Positions 6,696 through 21,158 of a DNA stretch of 64,000 nt are shown one piece after another. The notes below the pieces were generated by a model. That model made no database searches, was not told the origin of the DNA, and worked only from the letters and a program-made list of their open reading frames with translations. The position numbers were made by a program, and so were the translations under genes. The stretch spans positions 16,374-80,373 of the forward strand of contig JAPPNV010000307.1 in the NCBI GenBank assembly GCA_028818565.1, given 5' to 3'. Positions within the stretch are counted from its first letter, which is position 1, and each line of letters begins with the position of its first letter. Source of the stretch: Rhodospirillales bacterium (GTDB taxonomy: Bacteria > Pseudomonadota > Alphaproteobacteria > UBA828).

Positions 6696-6819
6696 GGCCT
6701 CTTTGGAACAGCGGCAGACTCCTAGCCCAAGTCTCGCGCTTCGCCCACCCCGCAGGACGAGTATGGACATGCGGGGCCCGATCGCGGAGTCATAGCGGGC
6801 AGCGGAAAGGGAGGACGGC

Positions 6820-7830
6820 GTGGCCAAGCCCGACTACGAGCGTATCCACGACGAGGCCATCGTGATCGACGCGGTCTGTCCGCTCATGGTGCGCCGCGAG
6901 TACATCGACTGGTGGATCGAAGGGGGCGTCAGTGCGGCCGGCCCGACCGTCGGCGCCTTCGAGCGCGCCGGCCCCACGCTCCGCGCGCTGGGGGACTGGC
7001 TCCGCGCCATCGACGGGGACCCCAGGCTCGTCCAGATCAAGCGCGCCGCCGACTTCGCGACCGCCAAGGCCGCCGGCAAGTTCGGCCTGTTCTTCCACTT
7101 TCAGGGGACCGAGCCGATCGAGAACGACCTCAACCTGATCGATGCCTACAAGGCTCTTGGCGTCGGCATGATTCAGCTCGCCTACAACGTCAAGAACCGC
7201 GTGGGCGACGGCTGCGAGGAACGGACCGACGCCGGGCTCAGCACCTTCGGCCTCAAGGTGGTCGAGCGCCTCAACGAGGCGCGCGTGGTCGTGGACTGCT
7301 CCCACACCGGCTACCGCACGACCATGGAGGCGATCGAGGCCTCCTCGCGCCCCGTGGACTTCTCGCACGCGAACCCCAAGGCGGTGCGGGACTCGCGCCG
7401 CAACATCACCGACGAGCAGATGAAGGCGGCGGCCGGGACCGGCGGTCTCGTCGGCATGGTCGGCTTCCCGTCCTTCGTCAGCGCCTCGCCGAGGCCCACT
7501 CTCGACGAGTTCGTCGACCACATCGACTACGCCGTCGGGCTCGTCGGCGACGATCACGTCGGCCTCGGCCTCGACTATTTCCAGGGGCAGGTGCCGGTGG
7601 TCGACGACGACGAGGCCCTGCGCATGTACGAGCACCGTGTCGCGATCGGCGACTGGCGGCCCGAGTCCTATCCGCCCCCACCCCATCGCTTCCCCGACGG
7701 GATCGCCACGCCGCGCGACTTTCGCAATCTGACCAGGCGCCTGCTGGAGCGCAGCCACAGCGAACAGACGACGAAGAAGATCCTCGGCGGCAACTGGGTC
7801 AGGGTCTTCCGCGAGGTCTGGGGCGAATAG
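6820..7830 (+). CDS. membrane dipeptidase (peptidase M19, renal-dipeptidase family)
   Basis: GTG start (track) with the SD-like sequence GGAAAGGGAGGA upstream. HFQGTEPIENDLNLIDAYKALGVGMIQLAYN and DCSHTG motifs are characteristic of M19. Confidence 0.8.
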   Translation: MAKPDYERIHDEAIVIDAVCPLMVRREYIDWWIEGGVSAAGPTVGAFERAGPTLRALGDWLRAIDGDPRLVQIKRAADFATAKAAGKFGLFFHFQGTEPIENDLNLIDAYKALGVGMIQLAYNVKNRVGDGCEERTDAGLSTFGLKVVERLNEARVVVDCSHTGYRTTMEAIEASSRPVDFSHANPKAVRDSRRNITDEQMKAAAGTGGLVGMVGFPSFVSASPRPTLDEFVDHIDYAVGLVGDDHVGLGLDYFQGQVPVVDDDEALRMYEHRVAIGDWRPESYPPPPHRFPDGIATPRDFRNLTRRLLERSHSEQTTKKILGGNWVRVFREVWGE

Positions 7831-7912
7831 CCGCCGCTTGCCACATGGGAGATTGCGGCGCTGCGGCGATCGACTAAGGTCTTGCCGCGCGACAACACGG
7901 ATCGATCGAGCC

Positions 7913-9205
7913 TTGAGCGCAGACCAATCCGCCATCGTCATTCCCGAGGGCTACCGTCCGCTCGACGTGGCCACCCTCGCCCCCTATCTCGCGGAGCAGC
8001 CGGAACTGCGCGAGCGCCTCGGCGGCGAGCCCTCGGGCTGGCAGGTGGTCGAGGTGGGCGACGGCAACCTGAACCTGGTCTTCCTGGTGCGCGGGCCGGC
8101 CGGCGGGCTCTGCGTCAAGCAGGCGCTGCCCTACGTGCGGCTGGTGGGCGAGAGCTGGCCGCTGCCGCTGAGCCGCGCCTTCTTCGAGCACGAGGCGCTG
8201 GTGGAGCACGGCCGCCACGCGCCGGGGCTCACGCCCGAGATCTACCGCTTCGACTCGACCCTGATGCTGACGGCGATGGAGCTGCTGGAGCCCCACATCA
8301 TCATGCGGCGGGGCATGATCCAGGGCATCCGCTACCCGCGCGCCGCCACCGACGTGGCCGAATACATGGCGCGGACGCTCTTCTTCACCTCCGACCTCGG
8401 CACGGTCGCGGCCGAGAAGAAGGCGCGCGTCGCGGTATTCTGCGGCAACACGGCGCTCTGCAAGCTCACCGAGGACGTGATCTTCACCGAGCCCTACATG
8501 GTCCACGACAACAACCGCTGGACCTCGCCGCAGCTCGACGACATGGCCGCCGCGTTCCGGGCCGATGCCCCGCTGAAACGCGCCGTCTCCCGCCTCAAGT
8601 GCAAGTTCATGGGGAGCGCCGAGGCACTGATTCACGGCGACCTGCACACCGGCTCGATCATGGTGACGCAGGACGACACCCGGGTGATCGATCCCGAGTT
8701 CGCGTTCTACGGGCCCATGGGGTTCGACACCGGCGCCTTCGTCGGCAACCTGCTGCTCAACTACTTCAGCCAGGACGGCCACGCGACCGAGGCCGACGAC
8801 CGCGCCGCCTACAAGGCGTGGGGGCTGGAGACGGCCGAGACCTTCTGGCACGCCTTCTCGGAGCGCTACGGCGCGCTCTGGGCGGAGCGCGCGGGCGACG
8901 CCTACCCGGCTGCGCTCTTCGGCGGCGACGAGGGTGCTGCTTCGTTGGCACAGGCGCGGGACGACGCCATCGCCACGCTCTTCACCGACACGATTCGGTT
9001 CGGCGCCGCGAAGATGATCCGGCGCATCCTGGGGATCGCCCACAACATCGATTTCGAGTGGATCGAGAATCCCGACCGCCGCGCCGCCTGCGAGCGCCCG
9101 GCCCTCCTCCTCGGCCGCGAGCTGCTCGTGAACGCCGCCGCCTACTCGACGATCGAGGCCGTCACCGATGCGGCGCGCGATTTCCAGGCGCGTGCCGGTG
9201 CGTGA
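7913..9205 (+). CDS. mtnK: S-methyl-5-thioribose kinase
   Basis: The EVGDGNLNLVF, KQALPYVRLVGESWPL, LIHGDLHTGSIMV and DPEFAFYGPMGFD motifs match MtnK end to end. I chose the in-frame TTG at 7913 (MSADQSAIVIPEGY). The upstream ATG at 7838 would add a 25-aa Arg/Cys-rich extension that looks spurious. Confidence 0.7.
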   Translation: MSADQSAIVIPEGYRPLDVATLAPYLAEQPELRERLGGEPSGWQVVEVGDGNLNLVFLVRGPAGGLCVKQALPYVRLVGESWPLPLSRAFFEHEALVEHGRHAPGLTPEIYRFDSTLMLTAMELLEPHIIMRRGMIQGIRYPRAATDVAEYMARTLFFTSDLGTVAAEKKARVAVFCGNTALCKLTEDVIFTEPYMVHDNNRWTSPQLDDMAAAFRADAPLKRAVSRLKCKFMGSAEALIHGDLHTGSIMVTQDDTRVIDPEFAFYGPMGFDTGAFVGNLLLNYFSQDGHATEADDRAAYKAWGLETAETFWHAFSERYGALWAERAGDAYPAALFGGDEGAASLAQARDDAIATLFTDTIRFGAAKMIRRILGIAHNIDFEWIENPDRRAACERPALLLGRELLVNAAAYSTIEAVTDAARDFQARAGA

Positions 9206-9263
9206 AGGGCCTTTGCCCGCTACGATCACCCCGACGACCAACGACAAGGAGTGGAGACCAGCC

Positions 9264-9611
9264 ATGACCATCGAACGCTTCGACAAAGGCCCGCGCATGA
9301 GCCAGGCGGTTGTGCACGGCGATCGCGTGTACCTCGCCGGCCAGGTGGCTGACGACACCAGTGAGGACGTCGCCGGCCAGACCCGGCAGGTCCTCGCCAA
9401 GATCGACGCCCTGCTGGCCAGGGCCGGCTCGTCGAAGGAGCAGATTCTCACCGCCAACGTCTGGCTTTCCGACATCCGGACCTTCAACGAGATGAACAGC
9501 GTATGGGATCCATGGGTCTCCAAGGAGAACCCGCCCTGCCGCGCCTGCGTCGAGAGCAGGCTGGCGACGCCGGATTACACGGTCGAAATCATGATAGTGG
9601 CCGCGCGCTAG
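9264..9611 (+). CDS. RidA/YjgF/L-PSP family protein
   Basis: ATG at residue 33 of track ORF 9168..9611, with AAGGAGTGGAGA SD. The protein is 115 aa (MTIERFDKGPRMSQAVVHGDRVYLAGQVADDT...ENPPCRACVESRLATPDYTVEIMIVAAR), a chorismate-mutase-like fold family. Confidence 0.8.
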   Translation: MTIERFDKGPRMSQAVVHGDRVYLAGQVADDTSEDVAGQTRQVLAKIDALLARAGSSKEQILTANVWLSDIRTFNEMNSVWDPWVSKENPPCRACVESRLATPDYTVEIMIVAAR

Positions 9612-9648
9612 CGGCCACCGTGCCCACTGAAGGGCGCAGGAGGGAGAC

Positions 9649-10974
9649 ATGAGCGAGGCGATGGCAACCGCCGGCGCGAACCGGCGCTACGACATCATTC
9701 CTTGGGCGGCGCAGAACGCGCTCGACCCGGTGATCGAGATGGAGCGCGGCGAGGGCGCCTACATCTATGACACGGGAGGCAAGCGCTATCTCGATTTCTC
9801 GTCGCAGCTGGTGAACGTCAATCTCGGCTACCAGCATCCCAAGGTGATCGCGGCGATCCAGGAACAGGCCGGGAGGCTCTGCTACATCGGCCCGCACCAC
9901 ACCACGGCCGCGCGCGAGAAGCTCGGCCGCAAGCTAGCGGAGATCGCGCCGGGCGACATCCAGACCGCCTTCTTCACCGGGAGCGGCAGCGAGGCCACCG
10001 AGATCGCCATGATGGTCGCGCGCCTCGTCACCGGGCGGCGCAAGATCCTTGCCAAGTACCGCTCGTATCACGGCACCACCTCGGGCTCGATGTCGGCGAG
10101 CGGCGACCCCAGGCGCCTCGCCATCGGCTACGAACACCCCAACATCGTCCGCTTCCTGGACCCCTACTGCCATCGCTGCCCCTTCTCGCTCTCCTACCCC
10201 GGCTGCGGGGTGCAGTGCGCGAAGAGCGTGGAAGAGGTGATCGAGCGCGAGGGGCCGGGGCAGATCGCTGCGGTCATCGTCGAGCCGATGACGGCGGCGA
10301 GCGGCGGGATCAAGCCGCCGCCCGAGTACTTCCCCATGCTGCGCGAGATCTGCGACCGCTACGACATCCTGATGATCGCGGACGAGGTGATCTGCGGCTT
10401 CGGCCGCACCGGGCGCTGGTTCGGCATGGAGCACTGGGGCGTGGTGCCCGACCTGATGGCGGTCTCCAAGGGCATCACGTCTGGCTACATCCCGATGGGG
10501 GCCGTGCTGATGCGGCCGCACGTCGCCGCGCATTTCGACGACGACTGGTTCCCGCTCGGCTCGACCCAGACCGGCAACCCCATCGCCTGCGCCGCAGCCT
10601 GCGCCGCGCTCGACGCCTACGAGAACGACGGGCTGATCGAGAACGCGGCGCGAATGGGCAAGGTGCTGGCGTCGGGGCTGGAGGACCTCAAGGCGCGCCA
10701 CTCGTGCGTCTCGGACGTGCGCTCGCTCGGCCTGCTTGGGGCGATCGAGCTCACCGCCGATGCGGCGACCGACGCGCCCTTCTCGACCGCGCCGAACCAC
10801 GCGGCAGTGAACGACCTCATGAAGCGCCGGATGGTGGAGCACGGGCTGGAGGCCCGGACCTGCCTCAACGGGCTCCTGATCGGCCCGCCGCTCTGTATCG
10901 ACGCCGCGCAGATCGGGGACGCCATCGGCATCCTCGACACGATCCTTGACGAGGTCGACGCCGCGCTCGGCTGA
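9649..10974 (+). CDS. class III PLP-dependent aminotransferase (omega-aminotransferase family)
   Basis: SD AGGAGGGAGA upstream. The FTGSGSEATE, EPMTAASGGI, DEVICGFGRTGRWFG motifs and the SKGITSGYIPMGAV PLP-lysine region are present. Confidence 0.85.
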   Translation: MSEAMATAGANRRYDIIPWAAQNALDPVIEMERGEGAYIYDTGGKRYLDFSSQLVNVNLGYQHPKVIAAIQEQAGRLCYIGPHHTTAAREKLGRKLAEIAPGDIQTAFFTGSGSEATEIAMMVARLVTGRRKILAKYRSYHGTTSGSMSASGDPRRLAIGYEHPNIVRFLDPYCHRCPFSLSYPGCGVQCAKSVEEVIEREGPGQIAAVIVEPMTAASGGIKPPPEYFPMLREICDRYDILMIADEVICGFGRTGRWFGMEHWGVVPDLMAVSKGITSGYIPMGAVLMRPHVAAHFDDDWFPLGSTQTGNPIACAAACAALDAYENDGLIENAARMGKVLASGLEDLKARHSCVSDVRSLGLLGAIELTADAATDAPFSTAPNHAAVNDLMKRRMVEHGLEARTCLNGLLIGPPLCIDAAQIGDAIGILDTILDEVDAALG

Positions 10975-10980
10975 GGCAGC

Positions 10981-11005
10981 GCGAGTCCGTCCCTGACGGA
11001 CTCGC
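10981..11005 (+). terminator. strong stem-loop immediately after the aminotransferase stop (terminator candidate)
   Basis: GCGAGTCCGTC-cct-GACGGACTCGC is a perfect 11-bp inverted repeat with a 3-nt loop, 7 nt after the TGA at 10972-10974. There is no clear U-tract. Confidence 0.45.
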
Positions 11006-11160
11006 GGCAACCCGTCGATTGACGCCGCGTGGATGGCTGCGGCCGGGCACGGCCGCCATGTCCGCGCATTCCGGCCGCGGCGCGGCACGCCCGGCAAAAG
11101 CACAAGTTCAAGCCGCCGACAGTCCCTTATGTTTCCCCGGCATATATGAGTTCTTCCATT

Positions 11161-11347
11161 ATTAATTCTTAGATTTCGTCAACAAAAATTGTATTGGAAA
11201 TCATCTGAAGCTGCATGCAACGGTTTTGCGGGAGACGGGAATTTTCGCTCGCGAAGAAGATGATATCTAATGTTGGCTCCTTCTCGGCGAATTTCCAATG
11301 AAACGCCCGCAAATCTGTCACGATTCGACCGTTGAAGGAGGGAACTC
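11161..11347 (+). promoter_or_regulatory. AT-rich intergenic region (putative promoter/leader) upstream of a small ORF
   Basis: This region has a markedly lower GC stretch (ttcttccattattaattcttagatttcgtcaacaaaaattgtattggaaatcatctgaagctgc...) and ends in the AAGGAGGGAAC SD. Confidence 0.3.
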
Positions 11348-11449
11348 ATGTTCAAATACGGCCTCAATGACCCGGTAGTGCGCAGTGCCTTGGCGGCTTT
11401 TGTCGGCGCCGTCTCGTTCATGGCCTTGCTGTCATTTCTTCTCGACTAA
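11348..11449 (+). CDS. small hydrophobic protein (33 aa), unannotated in the ORF track
   Basis: ATG at 11348 sits 6 nt after a strong SD (GAAGGAGGGAAC). The product is MFKYGLNDPVVRSALAAFVGAVSFMALLSFLLD*, a single predicted TM helix. The stop TAA is at 11447-11449. Confidence 0.45.
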   Translation: MFKYGLNDPVVRSALAAFVGAVSFMALLSFLLD

Positions 11450-11579
11450 CACGTGGCACGGGCAAGGATAATCCCGCGAATTGCGGGCGGAACATGGCCG
11501 CCATTTCGGGAGAACTTTGCTTGCGCCATATCGTTATCTGACGCGGCAAGGGTGCCGGCTTTTCCGCCGGGAAATCCGC

Positions 11580-12418
11580 CTACTGCTTGATCGCGCCGAG
11601 CGTGAAGGCGCGCGCGAGGTGCTTCTGGATCAGGAAGCCGAAGAGGACGATGGGGAGCGCCGCCGCGACCGCGAGCGCCGCCTGCACGCCGTAGACCCCG
11701 GTGTGATGGTGCAGATAGATCGGCACCGTCACGATCAGCTTGTCGCTCAGCGTCACCGTCAGCAGGAACTCGTTCCAGGTGAGGATGAAGATGAAGAGGC
11801 CGGTGACCGCGAGGCCGCCCCGGATCATCGGCACGGTGACGACGAGGTGCGCGCGCAGGCGGCTCATGCCGTCCATCATGCCGGCCTCCTCGATGGCGGG
11901 CGGCACCTCGTCGATGAAGCTCTTCAGCATCCAGAATGAGAAGGGCACGCCGAAGGCGGTGTGGACGAGGATGATGCCGATGTGCGTATCCCGCAGGCCC
12001 ACCGAGGTGAAGAGGAAGAGCGCCGGGATCGCCAGCGTGATCGGCGCGGCACGGCGCGGACGGCGAGGATCCCGATGGCGAGGCGGTCGCTGCCAGCGCG
12101 GTAGCGTGAGAAGCCGATCGCGGCGAGCAGCCCGATGGCGAGCGCGAGCGCCGTGGTGCCGCCGGCGATGATGAAGGAATCGAGAATTGCGCCGAGCCCG
12201 GTCCTGGGCGCCGTGACGTAGCTCTCCGAGTAGCGCTCGAAGAGAGGCGCGTAGTTCCCGAGCGTGAGGTCGCGCGGCACCCAGGGCGGCGGCACCGCCG
12301 CCCATTCGCCGAGCGGCTTGAGCGACGTCGACACCATCCAGAAGACGGGGAAGAGCGCGAAGATGAGCGCGGCCGAGAGGCCGAGCGCGTGGTGGGGCCT
12401 GAAGCGGGGAGAGGTCAC
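11580..12418 (-). pseudogene. carbohydrate-type ABC transporter permease (MalG/UgpE-like), disrupted by a frameshift
   Basis: The N-terminal half is in track ORF 11924..12418 (MTSPRFRPHHALGLSAALIFALFPVFWMVSTSLKP...RYRAGSDRLAIGILAV). The C-terminal half, with the EAA-loop region (...ITLAIPALFLFTSVGLRDTHIGIILVHTAFGVPFSFWMLKSFIDEVP...), is in a different frame (ORF 11580..12485). The frames switch near 12040-12055, where ccgcgccg replaces the expected ccgccg. This is either a real pseudogene or a sequencing indel. No partner SBP, ATPase or second permease is adjacent. Confidence 0.6.
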
Positions 12419-12621
12419 GGGTGTACACCGGGGTTGATCCCGCCCGCCGACTAGGGGGCGTCAAGCAGCTACCGTAACCGTGCACGTCGTCCCTGTATAT
12501 ACTGCTAAACGAGCGATAAATTTGGCCTTACGGTCCAAGAGACTTGCAGAAATGCAGCTGACCAGTGAGCACCCCTGTTGCGAAAAATTACGCTTCCTTC
12601 GGCCGACCTCTACTTTTCTTC

Positions 12622-13701
12622 TTACTCACCGACACTCCATTTGAAATTCGTAATCCAAGGGTTCATGTCTACAATCGTTCCTAAGTCAGAACATATTGCT
12701 CGCGAACTGAGCAGCTTTGGCGCTGATGAAATCAACCAGTATCCTGCGTAAGGGAGCATGTCATCTATGATTGGCACGACTAATTCGTTCCACAGAGGCA
12801 TGGACATACTTTCTCTTAATGTCTCTGCTGCTGCAACTTGTTCATCTGTCATATAAGACCGTATTATACCCTTTTCCTTTCCGCCGTCATCAACTCCTCC
12901 CTTGTCCGAGAGATCGAACCATACATACGCATTCACGAAATCTTGCGAAACTCCCCAGCCAAGAGCATACATGTGCCCCAAGTTGTATTGCGCCCAAGGG
13001 TCTCCTACATTGGCTGCTTTCTTGAAGTACCGTACGGCCTCCTCGTAGTCTTTCTTCACCCCAATACCCGCAGCATAATGCATGCCCAAGTCGAGCGATG
13101 CGGGCGCATAATTCTTTAGGTCAGCGGCAATTAGCCATTCCAACATCAGATTATTGTCAGCCGCGCTACGTTCGGAGTTTTTGTGTGACCATGCGAGGTT
13201 ATATAACGCCGGTGCATAGTTCTCTTTAGAAGCACTTTCGAATAACACCAGTGCTCTTTCACGGTCTTTTTCCGTTCCCAAGGCGTTCCAATACATCGTA
13301 CCCAAATTGTTTTGCGCGGGAGCGTAATTCTGATCCGCAGCCAGAAAAAAATAACCTTTAGCGTTATCGTAGGACGATTGGTCGAGTCCCCAACCGGCAA
13401 CATTGAACGTTCCAAGAATGTTCTGTGCTGGCGCGTATCCAGATTCAGCAGCACTTTTAAATGTGGATATTGCTTCCTGTAAATTTGACGTCTTACCATC
13501 TAACCCGTACAGGCGAACGACGCCATATTGGACTAAGGACTCCAACTCTTCAATATCGCTACTGCCTACAAATTCTTTGACGGAAGCCGCATTCCAATTG
13601 TTTGCCATGCACGCTGTTGGAACATAAGCCCTCGCTATGCCAACAACGAGCACACTACAAGAAAGAGCGATAAGTCCCACGAAGGAGAACACAAATCTCA
13701 C
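12622..13701 (-). CDS. Sel1-repeat (tetratricopeptide-like) protein with N-terminal signal peptide
   Basis: MRFVFSFVGLIALSCSVLVVGIARA is a signal peptide. It is followed by at least six Sel1-type repeats with the recurring pattern A..NLG.MY..G.GV..D...A..W. Confidence 0.75.
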   Translation of the reverse strand: MRFVFSFVGLIALSCSVLVVGIARAYVPTACMANNWNAASVKEFVGSSDIEELESLVQYGVVRLYGLDGKTSNLQEAISTFKSAAESGYAPAQNILGTFNVAGWGLDQSSYDNAKGYFFLAADQNYAPAQNNLGTMYWNALGTEKDRERALVLFESASKENYAPALYNLAWSHKNSERSAADNNLMLEWLIAADLKNYAPASLDLGMHYAAGIGVKKDYEEAVRYFKKAANVGDPWAQYNLGHMYALGWGVSQDFVNAYVWFDLSDKGGVDDGGKEKGIIRSYMTDEQVAAAETLRESMSMPLWNELVVPIIDDMLPYAGYWLISSAPKLLSSRAICSDLGTIVDMNPWITNFKWSVGE

Positions 13702-13712
13702 CTTACACGCTC

Positions 13713-14213
13713 CTAATCTGCGGTTAGCAAAGGAAACGTTTTTGCAGGATCAGCCAGTGTGCCTCCACTATATGGCTGAAGTAATCTTGAGGCGCCTTCT
13801 AGGCGGCCCATAACATACACCACATGTAACATGGTAGACTGGACTACAACAGTTTGCTCTTGGAGAGCTTCATACTCCCTATGGACATGTTTATAGTCGG
13901 CCATGTTGTCATGGGTGTGATCAGAGGAAGCCATAGCGCTGTGCGCGTGGTCGGACGAGGCCATGTTGTCATGGGCGTGATCAGAGGAAGCCATAGCGCT
14001 GTGCGCGTGGTTGGACGAGGCCTTGTCGGCCATATCGTCCGATAGCAAACCAAAGGGAAGGACACCTAGGGCGACTATCACCGCGATAAGAATGGGAGCA
14101 AACCAGCGGTATAAGCGAAGTTCCCTTTCTACCGCCGCAACACGCCCCGATAGACTATTGATATCAATATGGAATTTCTCACTCCCGTTCTCAGGCATGT
14201 CTCGGCCGCTCAT
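13713..14213 (-). CDS. single-pass membrane protein with a histidine-rich tandem-repeat ectodomain
   Basis: There is an N-terminal cytoplasmic segment, then the TM helix FAPILIAVIVALGVLPFGLL, then SSNHAHSAMASSDHAHDNMASSDHAHSAMASSDHTHDNMADYKHVH. The gene is 11 nt upstream of, and co-directional with, the Sel1 gene. A possible alternative start is at 14198. Confidence 0.6.
   Translation of the reverse strand: MSGRDMPENGSEKFHIDINSLSGRVAAVERELRLYRWFAPILIAVIVALGVLPFGLLSDDMADKASSNHAHSAMASSDHAHDNMASSDHAHSAMASSDHTHDNMADYKHVHREYEALQEQTVVVQSTMLHVVYVMGRLEGASRLLQPYSGGTLADPAKTFPLLTAD
13901..14020. repeat. perfect-frame 60-bp tandem direct repeat (2 copies, 58/60 identical) inside the His-rich protein gene
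   Basis: ccatgttgtcatggg[t/c]gtgatcagaggaagccatagcgctgtgcgcgtgg[t]t[c/t]ggacgagg occurs at 13901-13960 and again at 13961-14020. It encodes the duplicated 20-aa unit SSDHAH(S/D)AMASSDH... Confidence 0.8.
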
Positions 14214-14655
14214 CTAGCCATTCACAAAGTACTTCACGGCATGAATCGATTAAACCGTCAATTTCGTCTGCCCCCCACTTAGAATCCATCATGGGCTCGC
14301 TGTCCAAGTGACCGGAAGGCATCAAGCAGCCTCAATCCTCAATAAGAGGCCACATTTGATATATCAGAAAGATGCTAGTCGCAGCGAGTGACGCTGTCAA
14401 TACATTTCAGCGCACAGCATCGGAGGTTCATGGTCTGTTCGCATAGGTTCGGGAGCGCCTAGTCTCGTTCAGGGTCTCGACCATGATAAGTGGAGCGAAC
14501 TGTCGAGCCGCACAGGGTGATCGCTAGGCTTAGCTTCACTGGGCAGAGGTTGAAAGCGCAGAAGAGCTGCCTATGAAGCACGATATTGAGCCATTGAATG
14601 GACACCATTACAGGCGGACCCGCCCACCGGGGCAGTGGCGTGAGGGTGTACGCCC

Positions 14656-15639
14656 TCAGCCTGCGCCACTCTCCTCGATTGCGTCGGCTGCCGCGCAGAG
14701 CGCATCGAGCGCGGCGCGGGCCTCCTGCGCCTCGCGCACCGTGACCGCGCGGAAGCGGAAGATGTCGCCGGGCCGCGCCTGGCCGGGCTTCCAGAGCGAG
14801 CCGGTCGGCACCGTGTAAGGGTTGATGAAGCCGCCGAGGGTGAGGCCGTCGGGCCCGAGCACGATGGGCGTCTGGCCGCAGAGGTTGATCGAGCCCAGGC
14901 CGTAGCCGTGCTCGATGATGTTGGAGGGATGCGTGCCGTTCTCCGGCGACTTGTCGTAGGCGCGGCGGGTGAAGGTCCACTCCGGCCCTTCCAGGCGCAC
15001 GCCCACCCGGTTGCTGTGGGCGGAGACGCGCCAGTCGCTGGTGAGGAAGCGGGCGTGCCCGGCCTGGTCGATCCAGTCCTCCCGGGGCCCCGGCACCGCC
15101 TCGACCGACCAGACCCGGTCTTCGGGGAAGCGCGGCCGGGCATGGGCCGCGGCCCGGCGCCCCGGCGTCCCCGCGCCCTCGCCGAGGTGCAGACGCTGCC
15201 CCGCACTGAGCGCCGTCCCCTCCGCCCCGCCGATCTGGCCCAGGCGATAGGTCGCGCGGGAGCCCAGGAAGGGCGGCACGTCGATGCCGCCCGAGACCGC
15301 GAGATAGGCGCGCGCGCCGCGTGTCGCCGAGCCGAGCGCCAGGGTCTGGCCGGCGCGGACGGCTACGCTGGTCCAGCCTTCGACGGGCACGCCGTCCAGC
15401 GCGGCAGGCATCTCGGCCCCGCATACCGCCACCGCGCGGTCGTCGTGAAAGCGCAGGCTGGGGCCGATGAACTGGCATTCCAGCCCGGCCGCGCTGGCAT
15501 CGTTGCCCACCAGACGGTTCGCGATACGGAAGGACCAGCCGTCCATCGGGCCCGAGATCGGGTAGCCGGTGCTGACCACGCCGACGCGGCCCGGATAGTC
15601 CTGAACCGTGGTCTCCAGGCCGGGCTTCAGCACCTTCAT
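14656..15639 (-). CDS. pxpC: 5-oxoprolinase subunit C (PxpC / KipA; biotin-dependent carboxyltransferase-family protein; allophanate hydrolase subunit 2 homologue)
   Basis: The internal ATG (residue 192 of the track ORF) gives MKVLKPGLETTVQDYPGRVGVVSTGYPISGPMD..., a typical KipA/PxpC N-terminus. The upstream 191 aa of the ORF is Arg/His-rich noise. Confidence 0.8.
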   Translation of the reverse strand: MKVLKPGLETTVQDYPGRVGVVSTGYPISGPMDGWSFRIANRLVGNDASAAGLECQFIGPSLRFHDDRAVAVCGAEMPAALDGVPVEGWTSVAVRAGQTLALGSATRGARAYLAVSGGIDVPPFLGSRATYRLGQIGGAEGTALSAGQRLHLGEGAGTPGRRAAAHARPRFPEDRVWSVEAVPGPREDWIDQAGHARFLTSDWRVSAHSNRVGVRLEGPEWTFTRRAYDKSPENGTHPSNIIEHGYGLGSINLCGQTPIVLGPDGLTLGGFINPYTVPTGSLWKPGQARPGDIFRFRAVTVREAQEARAALDALCAAADAIEESGAG

Positions 15640-15653
15640 GACAGGCGCCGCGC

Positions 15654-16529
15654 TCAGTGCCGTTGCTCCGCGTCGAGCGACGCCACCCAGGCCTCGTAGG
15701 CCGAAAGCGAGAAGCGCTGATACTCGACGATGTTGAAGGGGTAGGTCCCTTCCGCGAGCTTCGCCTCGATGCGGTCGTATTCGCTGCGGTCGACGGGATC
15801 GAACTTGATGCGGTCGCCGACGCGCAGCAGCGCGATGCCGCCGCCGAAGGCCGGGATGCGCCCCTCGGGATCCAGCATGGGGAGCGGCGTGCGGCCGATC
15901 ATGTTGAAGCCGCCCGGCGAGTGCAGGGTCTGGATCGCGCTCTGGCCGCCGGCGCAGACCACCGCGCCCTGCGGCGTCCACATGCGGGGCGGGTCGTACT
16001 TGGGCGCGTAGATGATGCAGCGCGGGTCGAGCGGGCGCATGAGCGGCAGGCCGGGATAGGCGCCGATGATGCCGATCCAGTACTCGGTCGCCGAATGGAG
16101 CGCGACCAGCTCGTCGAGCCCGGAGAGGCCGTTCTCCGCCACGATGAACTCGGGGTCGTAGGGCCGCTCCTTGATGGTGCGGTGGTACTCCTCCATGCAG
16201 GCGCGGGTCCACGGGTCGAGGTAGAGGGTGGGCACGTGGACCAGCCGGCTCTCGATCTCGTCGGGGGTCCCCACCGCGTCGGCCAGCGCCAGCGCCTCGC
16301 GCACCAGGTCGTCGTAGGCGATGCGCTGCCAGTCGTACTCGACGAGCACGGAGTTGAAGCCGGGGTTGGTCTCGATCACGCCGGGAATGCGGGCCTCGTC
16401 CACGGCCTTGGCGAAGCCGCGCGCCTGCAGGTTGAGCCGGAGCCCGCCGTCGTCGCCGAACTCGATCAGCACGAAGCGGTCGCCGTTGGGCGCGACCAGG
16501 GGTTCCTCATAGCGCATGCCGCGCATCAT
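15654..16529 (-). CDS. pxpB: 5-oxoprolinase subunit B (PxpB / KipI; allophanate hydrolase subunit 1 homologue)
   Basis: MMRGMRYEEPLVAPNGDRFVLIEFGDD... is a KipI-type N-terminus. The gene is 14 nt upstream of pxpC. The start is uncertain (16529, 16526 or 16517 are all possible). The 16607 ATG would overlap the divergent gene. Confidence 0.7.
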   Translation of the reverse strand: MMRGMRYEEPLVAPNGDRFVLIEFGDDGGLRLNLQARGFAKAVDEARIPGVIETNPGFNSVLVEYDWQRIAYDDLVREALALADAVGTPDEIESRLVHVPTLYLDPWTRACMEEYHRTIKERPYDPEFIVAENGLSGLDELVALHSATEYWIGIIGAYPGLPLMRPLDPRCIIYAPKYDPPRMWTPQGAVVCAGGQSAIQTLHSPGGFNMIGRTPLPMLDPEGRIPAFGGGIALLRVGDRIKFDPVDRSEYDRIEAKLAEGTYPFNIVEYQRFSLSAYEAWVASLDAEQRH

Positions 16530-16605
16530 AGCGGACGATTCGCCGTTGGCCCGGGCCGGCGCGCGGCGTAAGCATGGGCGACGACTTGGCATGAAGGCAC
16601 CGGTC

Positions 16606-17070
16606 ATGGCGGAGGAACCATCCGACCCTCAGGGCGAGGCGGAGGAGTGGCAGTACCAGCTCCGTGTCGATCTGGCGGAGGATGCCGCCGAGGCGGCGCG
16701 GCGGGGTGCGGAGCATCCGGGGCTCGGGCCGCTGCGCGACATCCTCGCCGCCCACAACGCGCGCCTCATCTGCCAGTACGACGCCTTCGCCGGATACTGT
16801 GCGGAAGCCGAGGAGAACGGCATCGAGCACTATCCCCTCTACGCCTGGACCAAGGCGGTGATCGCCGACTCCGCCAAGCAGGCGAAGTACCAGAAATCGT
16901 TCTCGATCCATGTCGGCGGTGCGGAGGTCTACGCCAGGGACAAGGCGGACGCGCTGGAGGCGGCGCTTGCGCCGCTGGTCGGCGCGGGAGTCGTGACACG
17001 GCTCGCGAAGCACGACACCAATCCGGCCAACAGCCCGCAGATGCCGGAAAAGTACCGCGCCCGCTCGTGA
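16606..17070 (+). CDS. hypothetical protein
   Basis: No family recognised (MAEEPSDPQGEAEEWQYQLRVDLAEDAAEAARRGAEHPGLGPLRDILAAHNARLICQYDAFAGYCAEAEENGIEHYPLYAWTK...). ATG at 16606 has AAGG about 10 nt upstream. The ATG at 16591 is an alternative start. Confidence 0.45.
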   Translation: MAEEPSDPQGEAEEWQYQLRVDLAEDAAEAARRGAEHPGLGPLRDILAAHNARLICQYDAFAGYCAEAEENGIEHYPLYAWTKAVIADSAKQAKYQKSFSIHVGGAEVYARDKADALEAALAPLVGAGVVTRLAKHDTNPANSPQMPEKYRARS

Positions 17071-17076
17071 CGGGGC

Positions 17077-17598
17077 TCAGCCGCTGCCGTCGGCGGCGAG
17101 CTTTTCGCGCAGGTAGGGGATCAGGCCACCGGCCTGCAGCATGCCGCGCTCGGCGGTGGAGTAAGGTGCGGTGGGGAGCGCGCCGCCCCGGCTCAGGTTG
17201 CGGACCTCTGCCGCCTCCCAGTCGATCTCGATCTCGTCCCAGCGCGCGACCAGGCCGGTGATGCCGGGGCAGGCGATCTGCGGGAAGCCCTCGGCGATCT
17301 CCTCCCGCCAGTAGCCGGTGGCGAAGGAGTCCGCGATCACCGCGCGGATGCCTAGGCGGCGCAGCCCGATCATCGGCGCGAAGTGGGGATGGCCGTAGCC
17401 GAAATTCTCGGCGCCGACGACCACGTCGCCGGGCTCGACCTTCTCCGCGAAGCCGGGATCGAAGCGGCGCATGGCGTGAGCCGCGAGCGCGTCGGGGTCG
17501 GTGAGGCGGATGTTCTCGACGCCCACGATCTGGTCCACGTCGAAGTCCGCCTCCTCGAAGACGTAGGCGACGCGGCCGCGCAGCGGGGCCAGACTCAC
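17077..17598 (-). CDS. aconitase-family small subunit (LeuD-like, type 2 3-isopropylmalate/homoaconitate dehydratase small subunit)
   Basis: GTG start (residue 69 of the track ORF) gives VSLAPLRGRVAYVFEEADFDVDQIVGVENI.... The GTGA start overlaps the large-subunit stop. Confidence 0.75.
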   Translation of the reverse strand: MSLAPLRGRVAYVFEEADFDVDQIVGVENIRLTDPDALAAHAMRRFDPGFAEKVEPGDVVVGAENFGYGHPHFAPMIGLRRLGIRAVIADSFATGYWREEIAEGFPQIACPGITGLVARWDEIEIDWEAAEVRNLSRGGALPTAPYSTAERGMLQAGGLIPYLREKLAADGSG

Positions 17599-18878
17599 GC
17601 GCCGGCCTCCGTAGCCTCTGCCAGATACGGGCGCGGGTCGGCGATCCGCCCTTCCAGGGCCGATGCCGCCACCGCCGCAGCGTTGCAGAGGTAGATCTCG
17701 GAGTCCGGGCTTCCCATGCGGCCGGTGACGTTGAGCGTGCCGGTGGAGACTGCGCGCTGGCCCGCGGTCATGGTGGCGATCCGTCCGTAGCAGTAGTCGC
17801 ACGAGGACGAGGTGACGAAGGCGCCGGCCTCGATCAGCGTGGTCAGCAGGCCCTCGCGGGCGGCGTCCGCCATGATCGCCTGGCTGGTGGGCACGACGTG
17901 GAGCTGGAAGCCCGGCGCGACGCGGCGGCCCTTGAGCACCGCCGCGGCGGCGCGCAGGTCCTCGAGCCGGCCGGAGGCGCAGGAGCCGAGATAGCCGGCC
18001 TGGACCTCGAGCCCGGCATGGTCTGCGAGATCGGCGGTGGCGGCCGGGTTAGGCGGCACCACCACGATGGGGGCGAGATCGGTGAGATCGACCTCGTGCA
18101 GGGCGGCGTAGGTGGCGTCCGCGTCGCTCGCCTGCGGCTCGAAGGGCTGGGTTACGTGGGCCTTCGCGTAGTCGAGCGCGAGCCGGTCCGGGTTGCAGAT
18201 CGCGGTGAGCGCGCCGGTGAACATGGCGAGCCCCGTGATGGTCTGGCGCCCTTCGAGCGAGATATCGCCCAGCGCCGGCCCGCCCAGCTCCAGCACCTGA
18301 AAGCGGCAGGAGCGCGGCCCGAGCACGCGCACCAGATGGTGGAACACGTCCCGCGCCATGACGCCGGGCGCGAGCCGGCCGGTGAGGTTGACGCGCGTGG
18401 TCTCCGGCACGGTGAAGTCGATCCGCTCGCGGACGAAGGCCTCCAGGAGCTGCGTGTGGATGCCGATGGCGAGCGTGCCGAAGGCGCCGAGCTGCGCGAT
18501 GTGGCCGTCGAAGTGGACAACGAAGCCACCAGGCACGGCGTAGCCTGCCTCCGCTGCTACCTGATGGCCGATGCCCTCGCGCTCATGGAGCCTGACGCCG
18601 TTCTCCGCGCACCAGGTGCGGGTGACGATGTGCAGCTCCTCCTCCTCGGGCGTGTTGGCGGGCACCATGTGGTCGATGAAGAGGGCGTAACGCTCCGGCT
18701 CGGCGACGCGCTCGATGCCGAACTCCTCCTTCATCTGCTTGAAAATGAGATCGAGGTAGCCGGGGAAGTCGTAGCCCAGCACGTAGTCGGGTTTGACCTC
18801 GACTTCGGTGCCGGCGGGCACCGGCGCGCCCGCCCGGCTCGCGCGCCCCATGATCTTTTCCGCGATCGTGTAGCCCAT
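17595..18878 (-). CDS. aconitase-family large subunit (type-2/archaeal-like LeuC/homoaconitase large subunit, 427 aa)
   Basis: MGYTIAEKIMGRASRAGAPVPAGTEVEVKPDYVLGYD... with the SSCDYCYGR 4Fe-4S cysteine region. The length and N-terminus match the short type-2 LeuC class rather than bacterial LeuC. Confidence 0.8.
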   Translation of the reverse strand: MGYTIAEKIMGRASRAGAPVPAGTEVEVKPDYVLGYDFPGYLDLIFKQMKEEFGIERVAEPERYALFIDHMVPANTPEEEELHIVTRTWCAENGVRLHEREGIGHQVAAEAGYAVPGGFVVHFDGHIAQLGAFGTLAIGIHTQLLEAFVRERIDFTVPETTRVNLTGRLAPGVMARDVFHHLVRVLGPRSCRFQVLELGGPALGDISLEGRQTITGLAMFTGALTAICNPDRLALDYAKAHVTQPFEPQASDADATYAALHEVDLTDLAPIVVVPPNPAATADLADHAGLEVQAGYLGSCASGRLEDLRAAAAVLKGRRVAPGFQLHVVPTSQAIMADAAREGLLTTLIEAGAFVTSSSCDYCYGRIATMTAGQRAVSTGTLNVTGRMGSPDSEIYLCNAAAVAASALEGRIADPRPYLAEATEAGA

Positions 18879-18955
18879 CGCTCTCCGCCCGCGCCTCTAT
18901 GCCTCTTCGCCCGATGTTAGCACCATCGGACCCGCGCCACGCATTACTGCGGCCG

Positions 18956-19948
18956 TCAGGATTGGTCCAGACGGAAGAGGAGCAGGAGCGTGCGCTGGAG
19001 GAAGTGGAAGTTGTCGTCGGAGAGGATGTAGACCAGCGTTGCGCCGTCCGCGTCTCGCGCCACGGCCACGCCCTCGTAGTTGTCCACGGTGAGCGGCGGC
19101 GCGAAGCGGGCGAGGAGCTCGCCCTTCGGCACGGCACCGCCTCCGTTGGCACCGGCGGAAATCCGCTCGAGCCGCGCCTTGAATCCGCCGAGCAGCTTGA
19201 AGTAGCGCGACAGCACGAGCACGTCGCCGTTCGGCAGCACGGCCGCATCGGTCGGCTTGAAGTCCCGCGCGGTGCGATAACCGAAAGCGTCGACCGTGCC
19301 GTCGCCGACGAGCCAGCCGGCACGTGAGCCGCCGGTGCGCTTCAGGCTCTCCGCCAGCATCAGGATGCGGCCGTCGGGGAGCGGCGTCAGCGCTTCCAGC
19401 CCGCCGTTGGGCGGGGCGGCCGCGATGCCCTTCGGCGTCGGGAAGGGCGCGGGGCGGCCCTGCAACCCGCCGGTCTCCGCCGCATAGCGCCAGACCCGGT
19501 GACGCCCCTCGAAGCTCACCAGCCAGTCGCCGCCCGGCAGGCGCTCAAGCGCCTCGGCGTCGCGCCACTCGCCCGCGACCGGGTGGCCCTTCGTGTCGAG
19601 AAGCGGTCCGAGCGCGGCGTCGGCCAAGTCCGTGAGGCGGCCGGTGCGGTCGCGCACGACGCGGGCGCTGAACCAGTGGCCGCGGTCGGTCACGGCGGTG
19701 AGCCGCCCGCCGCCCGTGACGCTGAGGCCGGAGAGGCCGCCGAATGCCGGCTCTGCGCTGCGCAGGTCCAGCCCGCCGAGGTAGTGCAGGCGGCCCACGT
19801 GTTGCACGGCGCGGTCGGTCGGGTCGAGGGCGACCGGGCGCGTGGAAAGCGAGATCGACGCCGCGAACGCGTCGCCGCACGCCACCGCGAGGGCACCGAC
19901 GATGACGAGGGCGACAAGGGCGCGCGCCGGCGAGCGGCCGCCGTTCAT
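18956..19948 (-). CDS. secreted esterase-like-activity-of-phytase family protein (phytase-like beta-propeller)
   Basis: Internal ATG gives MNGGRSPARALVALVIVGALAVACGDAFAASISLSTRPVALDP..., i.e. a signal peptide. The ATG forms an ATGA overlap with the stop of the upstream MFS gene. Confidence 0.6.
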   Translation of the reverse strand: MNGGRSPARALVALVIVGALAVACGDAFAASISLSTRPVALDPTDRAVQHVGRLHYLGGLDLRSAEPAFGGLSGLSVTGGGRLTAVTDRGHWFSARVVRDRTGRLTDLADAALGPLLDTKGHPVAGEWRDAEALERLPGGDWLVSFEGRHRVWRYAAETGGLQGRPAPFPTPKGIAAAPPNGGLEALTPLPDGRILMLAESLKRTGGSRAGWLVGDGTVDAFGYRTARDFKPTDAAVLPNGDVLVLSRYFKLLGGFKARLERISAGANGGGAVPKGELLARFAPPLTVDNYEGVAVARDADGATLVYILSDDNFHFLQRTLLLLFRLDQS

Positions 19949-21156
19949 GCTGCGGCGACCACACGCCCGAGACGCGCGTCGGCCCGCCATACGCCGGCGA
20001 CGACCGCGAGACCGAGAGAGGACCAGACCAGCATGGTCCACCACGCGGCGTCCCACCCGCCCAGAGCCCCGGTCACTGCGGCGAGCAGCGGCGGGCCGAG
20101 CACGGCGCCGAGCGCGGCCCCCTGCGCCACGAAGCCGCCAGCCATCGCCACCTGCGCCTGGCTCGGCGCATGCGCGATGCCGCCTTCGAAGCACACGGCC
20201 GGTAGCGGGCCGCTCACCAGGGCGAAGCAGACGGCGAGCGGGATCTTGGCATCGACGGGCGTGAAGGGCGCGAAGAGCGTGGCCGCGCAGACGCCCATGC
20301 CCGTGAAGGTGAGACCCAACAGCAGCCAGCGCGCAACGCCACGCTGCAAGAGCCAGGCGCTGGTTATGGAGCCCACGGTGGTGGCGAGGACGAAGAGCGC
20401 GGTGAAAAGCGCGGCAGCCTCGACCGAGCGGTCTTGGGTCTCGATCAGGAAGGTGGGCAGCCACGCCATCAGCGCCTGCCACTGCACGGCGAAAATCGCG
20501 AAGGCCGCGCCGAAGAGCCAGGGCCCCGGCCGCGCCAGCGTCGCGCGCACGCCTGCACGATCGAACGTGCTGCCCGCCGCCGGCATTCGCCAGCGCCCCG
20601 GCGCCGCGCCCCAGGCGAAGGCAAGCAGGAAGAGCAGGATGAGCCCGGAGTTGATGAACCAGAGGCCGCGCCAGCCCAGAGGCTCCAGCAGAACCGTCGC
20701 GATCACCAGCGAGAGCGCGATGCCGACCGGCATGTAGGTGCCCCAAATGCCGAGGACGAAGCGGCGCACGCCGGTATCCGTCGCGGCGACGAGCATCTTG
20801 GGCCCGGCAACCGTGAGGGTGGCGAAGCCGAAGCCTTCGACGATGCGGGCCGCCAGCAGCTGAGCCCCGTTCTCCGCGAACCCGCCGGCAAAGCTCGCGA
20901 GCGCCATCACGGCACCGCCCACGAAGACCATCCGCCCGATGCCCGCCCGGTCGACAATCACCCCGCCGGCAACGCCGAGGACCGCGCCCATGCCGTAGAA
21001 CGACGACGCGATCAGCCCGGCGATGACGCGGGGCAGATCAAGCTCCGCCTCCAGCATCGGCAGCGCGGGCGGCACCTTGCCGACCTGCATGCCCACCATG
21101 TAGCCGGCCGTGAAGGCCAGGGCCACGATGTCCCAGCGGGTGCGGGCCTGGGACAC
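19945..21156 (-). CDS. MFS transporter
   Basis: 403 aa with 12 predicted TM segments. GTG start. Its GTG lies 2 nt after the rnr stop. Confidence 0.8.
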   Translation of the reverse strand: MSQARTRWDIVALAFTAGYMVGMQVGKVPPALPMLEAELDLPRVIAGLIASSFYGMGAVLGVAGGVIVDRAGIGRMVFVGGAVMALASFAGGFAENGAQLLAARIVEGFGFATLTVAGPKMLVAATDTGVRRFVLGIWGTYMPVGIALSLVIATVLLEPLGWRGLWFINSGLILLFLLAFAWGAAPGRWRMPAAGSTFDRAGVRATLARPGPWLFGAAFAIFAVQWQALMAWLPTFLIETQDRSVEAAALFTALFVLATTVGSITSAWLLQRGVARWLLLGLTFTGMGVCAATLFAPFTPVDAKIPLAVCFALVSGPLPAVCFEGGIAHAPSQAQVAMAGGFVAQGAALGAVLGPPLLAAVTGALGGWDAAWWTMLVWSSLGLAVVAGVWRADARLGRVVAAA

Positions 21157-21158
21157 GA

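Follow-up and report, generated by a model that had tools for sequence, protein, structure and literature searches.

A low-GC islet with a conserved gene pair for a His-rich membrane protein and a Sel1-repeat protein in uncultured Rhodospirillales

The analysed window is a stretch of 64,000 nucleotides (nt) from contig JAPPNV010000307.1 of assembly GCA_028818565.1, a metagenome-assembled genome (MAG) of a Rhodospirillales bacterium deposited at NCBI (locus tag OXP75_13380). In this high-GC (guanine plus cytosine) DNA, a low-GC islet of about 2.2 kb interrupts the 38-bp spacer that separates a pxpB/pxpC-like gene pair from a solitary ATP-binding cassette (ABC) permease gene. The islet carries two genes, coding for a small His-rich membrane protein and a Sel1-repeat protein. 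The block is an insertion of foreign composition, probably acquired horizontally, and its two genes form a rare, conserved module. The clade is one of uncultured Alphaproteobacteria/Rhodospirillales known from MAGs only. The islet, its features and the two flanking genes are as follows (ORF, open reading frame; aa, amino acids).

12434–14632, no strand: low-GC islet of about 2.2 kb (GC profile, identity step relative to the long-read metagenome contig L001, empty-site relatives)
12622–13701, minus strand: gene of a 359-aa Sec-exported Sel1-repeat (SLR) solenoid protein (Pfam, AlphaFold2, Foldseek, alignment)
13713–14198, minus strand: gene of a 161-aa predicted bitopic (N-in/C-out) membrane protein (ORF, start in L001 and in the NCBI annotation, family alignment, AlphaFold2)
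13899–14033, minus strand: tandem DNA repeat encoding MASSDHAH(S/D)x units (repeat detection, comparison with L001)
14372–14400, minus strand: candidate sigma-70-like promoter (TTGACA, 17-nt spacer, TAGCAT; 10 of 12 consensus positions matched)
11580–12418, minus strand: solitary ABC permease gene (CUT1-type, MalG/GlcU-like; domain and family matches), a flank of the islet and not part of it
14656–15639, minus strand: PxpC-like (CT_A_B) gene, the right flank of the islet (gene order in relatives, domain match)

Composition, limits and turnover of the islet

The GC content, calculated in 300-nt windows, fell from 0.69–0.73 to 0.45–0.52 across positions ~12,450–14,600. This was the lowest-GC stretch in the 64-kb window, the remainder of which lay at 0.65–0.75. 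The islet as a whole had a GC of ~0.50 versus 0.69 in the flanking genes. The contrast was even sharper at third codon positions (GC3), where the Sel1 gene had a value of 0.478 and the His-rich gene one of 0.531 in comparison with 0.92–0.97 for six flanking genes. Low GC was likewise found in the two non-coding parts of the islet (0.52 and 0.54). Low GC3 together with low non-coding GC indicates that the composition of the islet is not an amino-acid effect, and the concern that low GC might be confined to the coding regions for this reason could be set aside. The GC profile, GC3 and codon contrast thus bore out the original prediction, made from the sequence of this DNA, of a ~2.2-kb low-GC block in high-GC DNA. 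Two hallmarks of a genomic islet were found, namely base composition and codon usage atypical of the host and absence from the same site in close relatives.

The sequence CCGGGG (plus strand) occurs at 12428–12433 and again at 14627–14632, forming a direct repeat that bounds the islet. It reads CCCCGG at both ends in the window, and its counterparts in L001 are CGCCCCGG/CGCACCGG. A nucleotide-level comparison of the junctions showed that the islet lies after the '...CCGG' of the pxpC–permease spacer. From the position of the junction repeat, the islet was set at about 12,434–14,632, limits that count one copy of the flanking 6-bp repeat. Only a 6–8-bp direct repeat was present at the junctions, with no long att-type repeat. 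The islet region contained no tRNA gene and no match to an Rfam family, and a search for terminal inverted repeats at the islet ends gave none that were convincing. The ORF scan confirmed the predicted lack of a mobility gene in the islet, as no integrase or transposase was detected either there or among the neighbouring ORFs scanned.

The L001 contig is colinear with positions 5,717–21,890 of the window at 88–93% nucleotide identity and carries both islet genes in the same place, although its small gene was missed by the annotator. The gene pair also precedes the permease gene in L004, a low-coverage contig in which the Sel1 gene is degraded and frameshifted. The presence of the islet at an equal site in three independent assemblies (the window, L001 and L004) rules out an assembly chimera. 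It had been proposed that the insertion idea would fail if relatives carried the same two genes at the same site with native-like composition. The site was indeed the same in L001 and L004, but the composition there was equally non-native.

A permease scan of 185,579 species genomes yielded 18 further loci of the same clade (L007–L024), the gene content of which was read from a tblastn panel. Neither of the islet genes was found anywhere in these loci. The core gene order in the relatives was LeuC-LeuD-orf154-[PxpB-PxpC]-permease, followed by a convergent aminotransferase gene. In five close relatives with an empty site (L007, L008, L010, L015 and L023), the stop codon of the pxpC-like gene lay 38 bp from the permease start. 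The proposed comparison of orthologous loci, intended to define the endpoints of the insertion, therefore confirmed it through empty 38-bp sites and shared junctions.

The content of the position upstream of the permease gene differed among the relatives. It comprised pxpBC alone in the five empty-site loci, an OsmC-like gene in L009, L016, L018 and L024, a low-GC PDC-S13 cassette in L012 and the same cassette together with OsmC in L017. An ORF of low GC (0.44) for a putative 334-aa membrane protein was present in L011 (L011:8884-9888), OsmC and a low-GC 154-aa ORF in L022 (L022:9328-9792), and nothing in L013, L014 and L021. The 316-aa Bro-N protein of the low-GC cassette matched the PADLOC defence candidate PDC-S13 (E = 7.5e-92), and no Pfam or PADLOC match was obtained for the 334-aa and 154-aa proteins. 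Every variant ended at a conserved CCCGGTGxCCGCC sequence located ~10 nt ahead of the permease start. Four flanking genes (3,939 columns) gave a star-like neighbour-joining tree, and the flank identity to the window was 93.6% for the empty-site L023, 93.4% for the islet-bearing L001 and 93.3% for L009 with the OsmC site. The star-like tree and the similar identities mean that the content of the site turns over at least as fast as the species diverge. The position upstream of the permease is a hotspot of gene-content turnover. With near-identical flanks and six or more alternative contents, including a defence-candidate cassette, the locus is a clean natural case of a very small recombination hotspot, and the site is useful for following cassette turnover in uncultured symbionts.

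The divergence of the islet was at odds with that of its surroundings. The identity between the window and L001 dropped from 0.90–0.98 in the flanks to 0.65–0.80 across the islet, including its non-coding DNA, and the steps coincided with the GC boundaries. The synonymous divergence (dS) between the two was 0.16–0.32 for the flanking genes versus about 1.0 for the Sel1 gene. With L004 as a distant outgroup, substitutions in the Sel1 gene were nearly balanced (41–46 weak-to-strong and 32–38 strong-to-weak per lineage), and no clear drift of the gene toward the host composition was detected. Such a pattern could have arisen through any of three histories: transfer of an old cassette between members of the clade through recombination in conserved flanking DNA, repeated insertion at one site, or fast evolution in place. 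In its atypical composition, presence/absence, alternative cargo and defence-candidate cassette, the locus resembles known integration or recombination-hotspot islets. It differs from them in having no integrase, tRNA or long att repeat, in its very small size (2.2 kb) and in a divergence four times that of its flanks, without any indication of amelioration.

The permease gene next to the islet is inactivated in the window by a 2-nt insertion at ~12046–12047, as the original prediction had recognized in calling it frameshifted. This 2-nt frameshift is specific to this genome. The gene is intact in L001, where the islet is present, and in all of L007–L024 (a single full-length tblastn segment), and in L004 it carries an independent 1-nt insertion frameshift. 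The prediction had further read the solitary permease as a sign that the insertion truncated a sugar ABC operon. Under this explanation, the insertion would have destroyed an operon for a sugar ABC transporter, of which a broken, partnerless permease remains. The permease does adjoin the islet and is frameshifted in the window, and L004, the second islet genome, has a permease frameshift of its own. However, the permease was solitary and intact in all 18 islet-free relatives, located between the same neighbours (pxpC, orf154 or OsmC upstream and the convergent aminotransferase downstream), and no partner gene for a substrate-binding protein, second permease or ATPase was found beside it in any of them. 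Loss of the partners hence predates the islet and is unrelated to it. Moreover, the permease is intact even in relatives lacking any pxpBC, L001 combines the islet with an intact permease, and no remnants of other ABC genes flanked the islet in the ORF and domain scan. The gene evolves under purifying selection (dN/dS, the ratio of non-synonymous to synonymous substitution rates, 0.03–0.16 between the window and L001). That the permease has no operon partners is thus an old, clade-wide and apparently functional state, and a disrupted operon is extremely improbable. In a weaker form of this explanation, parting the permease from the upstream pxpBC could have had a polar effect. The broken permease in two of the three islet genomes may hint at such an effect of uncoupling from pxpBC, with n = 3 and L004 being a low-coverage contig. 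The main practical result of the analysis is a correction, in that the islet broke no operon.

The two genes and their conservation as a pair

Both islet genes are encoded on the minus strand and separated by the predicted 11-nt gap (13702–13712). The spacer reads TAG-GAGCGTGTAAG-GTG, and an AGGAG sequence overlaps the stop codon of the first gene. This overlap suggests translational coupling of the two genes, so translation of the Sel1 gene is probably coupled to that of the small gene. The candidate promoter lies ~175 nt upstream of the small gene, and both of its hexamers are kept in L001 (TTGACA-17-TATCAT) amid DNA that is only ~68% identical. On the strength of this consensus match, the module is predicted to have a promoter of its own. 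An upstream ORF of 43 aa, which overlaps the small gene at its start, was rejected as a gene, as stop codons interrupt it in L001.

The His-rich ORF at 13713–14213 would encode the 166 aa given in the original prediction. An ATG at 14198 gives 161 aa, in agreement with the NCBI annotation, and the upstream ATG is replaced by ATA in L001, while 'ATGCCTGAG' is conserved. Because of the NCBI call and the loss of the upstream ATG in L001, the ATG at 14198 is almost certainly the true start. The predicted single transmembrane (TM) helix and His repeats were thus retained and the length was revised to 161 aa. The protein consists of a short cytoplasmic N-terminus, one TM helix, five His-x-His (HxH) units and a long periplasmic helix. 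As read from the sequence, the N-terminal flank of the TM helix is Arg-rich and the C-terminal flank acidic, and this charge distribution points to an N-in/C-out topology. The cytoplasmic part of ~35 residues contains no signalling domain. The AlphaFold2 monomer comprised two helices (residues 13–63 and 93–143) with the repeat between them modelled without confidence (predicted local distance difference test, pLDDT, <50). Such a helix–repeat–helix layout is compatible with a stalk and proves nothing.

Searches with the small protein returned few relatives. No Pfam family (E ≤ 0.01) or NCBIfam family (E ≤ 0.001) was matched, including Cu-, Ag- or Zn-binding His/Met families of the CopB or PcoE/SilE type, and neither were any PHROG or PADLOC families or, at E ≤ 10, PDB sequences. 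A word-indexed search recovered the protein itself only, a profile built from seven family members added one new member, and ~8 relatives were found among 5.8 billion proteins.

The 359-aa product of the second gene was predicted to be a Sel1 protein with a signal peptide, and the ORF, a Pfam match and the N-terminus agreed with this. The Sel1 model (PF08238) scored 90 bits against a cut-off of 30.7 (E = 8e-26, three stretches), and a Sec signal peptide with an AxA cleavage site was read from the sequence. The family is characterized by a C-terminal non-Sel1 tail of ~60 aa and two invariant cysteines, C31 and C337. The AlphaFold2 model (mean pLDDT 80.5) showed ~7 SLR helix pairs and a less confident tail. 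In a Foldseek search of the PDB, the top 13 matches were all SLR proteins (E from 4e-12 to 1e-8), with E. coli c5321 (4bwr), LceB, LpnE, Oxalobacter SLR proteins and HcpC as the best ones. The Sel1 solenoid is a protein–protein adaptor fold. Scores against SLR equivalog models were far below the NCBIfam cut-offs: 56 versus 350 for MerG, 41.5 versus 330 for MotX, 36.5 versus 700 for AlgK and 24.6 versus 450 for ExoR. Matches in Pfam and NCBIfam were all of the generic Sel1 type, and the protein matched no PADLOC family. Only ~7 proteins among 5.8 billion matched it over the full length (34–70% identity). When viral contigs and JGI metagenome contigs were scanned with the Sel1 profile, only generic Sel1 proteins lacking the C-terminal tail were recovered, and no new module loci. 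The dN/dS between the window and L001 was 0.175 (dN 0.18), and the Sel1 gene is under purifying selection.

The likeness to c5321, Legionella LpnE and LceB and Helicobacter HcpC consists in Sec export and an SLR solenoid of ~7 helix pairs. The identity to these proteins is only 21–27%, and the family described here differs from them in its ~60-aa tail with an invariant cysteine, a further invariant cysteine at the N-terminus and an obligatory membrane-protein partner encoded upstream. We know of no report of such a Cys-containing tail or membrane partner for these named SLR relatives. The logic of the pairing and the alphaproteobacterial host are shared with ExoR–ExoS, in which a membrane protein is bound, via its periplasmic domain, by a periplasmic SLR protein. 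In contrast to ExoS, the membrane partner here lacks a kinase domain or any other output domain, and the pairing is known from adjacent genes in a mobile islet.

The suggested search for the His-rich/Sel1 pair elsewhere identified it as a conserved module in nine loci (the window, L001–L006, L132 and L133). In all nine, the small TM gene lies immediately upstream of a ~360-aa Sel1 gene at a spacing of -4 to 85 nt, and the pair is conserved at 34–70% identity. The small proteins share a short Arg-rich N-terminus, one TM helix, a 'DD(I/M)xxMAxSxHxHD' sequence and a long helix. The GC content of the module was 0.476–0.489 at every locus as compared to 0.60–0.65 in the surrounding DNA, so that the module holds ~48% GC in every high-GC host, and it evolves ~4 times faster than the flanks. 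Its neighbours included an IS66 TnpB in L005, a DDE transposase and a serine recombinase in L003, and ankyrin-repeat proteins and an integrase in L002. The gene pair is an undescribed, very rare family, and the islet as such is of an ordinary kind.

In L002, four genes precede the module on the same strand (L002:4037-7578): two encode the ankyrin-repeat proteins, one a 384-aa ERERLALE-rich coiled coil and one is a 204-aa ORF sharing 4 nt with the start of the small gene. This region could be a larger host-interaction island. Three tandem GGAATGGTGTGTACA copies occur just downstream of the Sel1 gene in L001, near the permease-side end of the islet (L001:11190-11245), and GTGTACAG-like copies are present at the equivalent place in L004 (L004:3650-3700). 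The window counterpart is weak (TATATACAGGGA, ~12,493–12,504).

The HxH repeat and possible roles of the module

The tandemly duplicated His-rich unit of the original prediction was found as a 60-nt unit present in 2.1 copies with 95% matches (13899–14026) and a 30-nt sub-period. The encoded units have a period of 10 residues. There are five HxH motifs in the window protein and seven in that of L001 (three 60-nt units in an intact 179-aa ORF), while most family members have one. An exhaustive phmmer search of 1.84 billion representatives gave the protein itself and 33 proteins that matched residues ~55–120 only, with no full-length relatives of the small protein. Three of five scanned top matches, the metagenomic proteins P0126, P0130 and P0134, hit PHROG tail-fibre or tail families and had repeats of the form YA(A/S)SDH(T/S)H(S/T/D)G. 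A BLASTP alignment of the window repeat with P0130 was in register at period 10 with 41–54% identity and included the lead-in DxxxKAxSNHxH. The repeat was also in register with that of P0126.

In T4 gp37, R-type pyocin fibres and P2 gpV, HxH motifs from three chains form an octahedral Fe(II) site on the trimer axis, to which nucleation or stiffening of the trimer has been ascribed (PMC6116203, PMC11705849). Fibre HxH sites are defined by a homotrimer in which six His residues octahedrally coordinate Fe(II) or Zn on the axis (PMC6116203). The small protein has the repeated motifs, period and flanking consensus of such fibres. With T4 gp37 (PDB 2XGF), the R1/R2 pyocin fibres and P2 gpV it shares the 10-residue period and the consensus (Y/M)A(A/S)SDH(T/A)H(D/S/T)x, and at the level of sequence the amplified array is indistinguishable from phage-fibre HxH repeats in period and consensus. 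It differs from them in belonging to a cellular single-pass membrane protein of 161 aa and not to a virion fibre, in matching no PHROG family or PDB sequence as a whole and in that most members have one unit. A phage-fibre-type HxH array is unusual in a cellular membrane protein. The original prediction had proposed metal binding or sensing for the His repeats. The match to a structural fibre metal site narrows this proposal, and sensing is not the best-supported reading.

The best explanation, to which we give only slightly better than even chances, is that an accessory islet was acquired at a hotspot and that its cargo is a two-gene envelope module, a metal-stapled trimeric stalk with a Sel1 scaffold. 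The first gene would encode an N-in/C-out inner-membrane protein with 1–7 'MAxS(D)HxH(D)' units outside the membrane followed by a long helix, the unit having been amplified by a 60-nt tandem duplication in the window genome and L001. The protein may trimerise via HxH–metal sites and the periplasmic helix to give a metal-stapled inner-membrane stalk. By analogy with the fibres, three chains would supply six His residues to a buried Fe(II) (or Zn) on the trimer axis. The Sel1 protein could then dock on the stalk as a membrane-tethered periplasmic scaffold, with host contact, envelope assembly or phage interference as possible outputs. If this mechanism is true, it would be, to our knowledge, the first HxH metal-stapled trimer motif outside phage or tailocin fibres and spikes, and a new two-gene envelope module moving between high-GC symbiont genomes. 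A further step, namely that a cellular membrane family adopted the metal-stapled trimer of phage fibres, amplified it in two genomes and, together with the Sel1 protein, constitutes an undescribed mobile envelope module, is distinctly doubtful. If true, the job of the module could be that of a fibre mimic or decoy against phage tail fibres or injection, or, alternatively, that of a host-contact structure in animal symbionts.

Several observations weigh against the stalk-and-scaffold explanation. The trimer, the metal site and the complex with the Sel1 protein are speculative, and AlphaFold2 confidence for the small protein was low (pLDDT 56.8). No similarity to tail fibres was detected for family members with a single unit, so the similarity of the repeat could be convergence of a short unit. 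The insertion is left without an explaining mobility gene or clear terminal repeats, and a 6–8-bp GC-rich direct repeat can arise by chance. With ~25% divergence between the window and L001 in the islet and ~6.6% in the flanks, a simple single-insertion history fails to explain the islet. Finally, dN/dS for the small gene was 0.69 (window versus L001), which, together with the degraded Sel1 gene of L004, means that the module may be dispensable or decaying in some hosts.

Other explanations were considered on the same evidence. The His/Met-rich ectodomain might be a periplasmic Cu/Zn/Ni buffer or sensor of the SilE/PcoE/CopB kind with the Sel1 protein as its partner or relay, as suggested by the dense His, Asp and Met residues with HxxM spacing in the periplasmic stretch and by a unit copy number varying by strain (5, 7 and 1), as in metal-binding repeats. 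This is a serious but unlikely alternative, given that no Pfam or NCBIfam model was matched, none of the nine loci had metal-resistance or regulator genes adjoining the module, the one HxH of most members is too little for buffering, the ~35-residue cytoplasmic part has no signalling domain and the only significant sequence matches were tail-fibre repeats. It is distinctly unlikely that the Sel1 protein is an acquired 'eukaryotic-like' host-interaction factor of an animal (probably sponge) symbiont, with the small protein as an accessory or export helper. A Sec signal without a linked secretion system makes the periplasm the default location, the strict pairing with a membrane protein is more suggestive of an envelope complex than of a free effector, and a literature search for a sponge origin of the MAGs found no confirmation of the host origin of the samples. 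Such a role would nevertheless fit the clade being known only from MAGs, some of them named RHO1_bin and RHO3_bin, the two ankyrin-repeat proteins adjoining the L002 module, the rapid divergence of the islet and the nearest structures, among them two Legionella effectors (LpnE and LceB) and c5321 (4bwr), an E. coli antigen. It would also fit the repeatedly reported enrichment of Sel1 and ankyrin proteins in sponge symbionts (PMC6372511, PMC5765558).

A role in anti-phage defence or superinfection exclusion, in which a membrane-anchored mimic of a tail-fibre segment and a periplasmic adaptor block adsorption or DNA entry, could account for the tail-fibre-like repeat, fast evolution, variable repeat number, association with mobile elements and patchy distribution. 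The PDC-S13 candidate in the same hotspot (L012 and L017) and DndB in an adjacent variable spot (L001) point in the same direction. The arguments for it come purely from context, however, and it was judged improbable, since neither protein had a PADLOC match, no family member was found in the viral-contig scan and single-unit members lack fibre similarity. The islet could also be decaying junk, a remnant of a larger mobile element with non-functional genes, as the absent mobility gene, the frameshifted Sel1 gene of L004, the dN/dS of 0.69 for the small gene and the lack of the islet in most relatives would allow. Against this, the Sel1 gene has kept a dN/dS of 0.175 over a dS of ~1, the frames, gene order, promoter hexamers and overlap of the Shine–Dalgarno sequence with the stop codon are all retained between the window and L001, and the pair is conserved in nine loci at 34–70% identity, which makes junk a very improbable description.

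Further variable segments at the locus

The PDC-S13 cassette at the site of the islet (L012:8744-9691 and L017:7759-8622) also contains a divergent gene for a 166–172-aa coiled-coil protein. In L001, a 1.76-kb insertion of lower GC (0.49–0.56) is located between the LeuD-like gene and orf154 (L001:4841-6560) and holds a 105-aa ORF as well as the gene of a DndB-like protein (PADLOC 7.6e-113). The window, in which the junction lies at 17070/17077, lacks this insertion. A hairpin with a 6-bp stem (TGAGGG-CGTACA-CCCTCA, minus strand) overlaps the stop codon of the pxpC-like gene at window positions 14641–14658. It arises from ~10 extra nt that are found neither in L001 nor in the empty-site relatives.

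On the other side of the permease gene, the aminotransferase gene is intact in the window (9649–10974) and appears frameshifted in L001 (L001:12159-13485), being split there into a 436-aa ORF running out of frame and a 283-aa C-terminal ORF. A second low-GC segment of ~600 bp (GC down to 0.47) separates the aminotransferase and permease genes of the window (10975–11579). It is absent from L001 and L007, in which the gap between the two genes is 10–17 bp. The segment contains an ORF (11348–11449, plus strand) for a 33-aa hydrophobic peptide, MFKYGLNDPVVRSALAAFVGAVSFMALLSFLLD, preceded by a strong Shine–Dalgarno sequence, GAAGGAGG, and kept in L004, L017, L018 and L024. This ORF could encode a small membrane peptide or be a type I toxin-like gene. 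An 80-aa ORF (11179–11421, minus strand), also considered as the gene of this segment, is probably spurious, as it is the 33-aa ORF on the opposite strand that is conserved.

Farther from the islet, ~223 bp of the window (7725–7947) have no counterpart in L001, the flanking alignments joining at L001 position 15192. Colinearity with L001 stops at window position 5717, beyond which L001 has rve and AAA_22 transposition-type genes. The window has a moderately lowered GC (0.57–0.61) between positions 3000 and 5000, with an ORF at 3201–4559 encoding flavin amine-oxidase domains.

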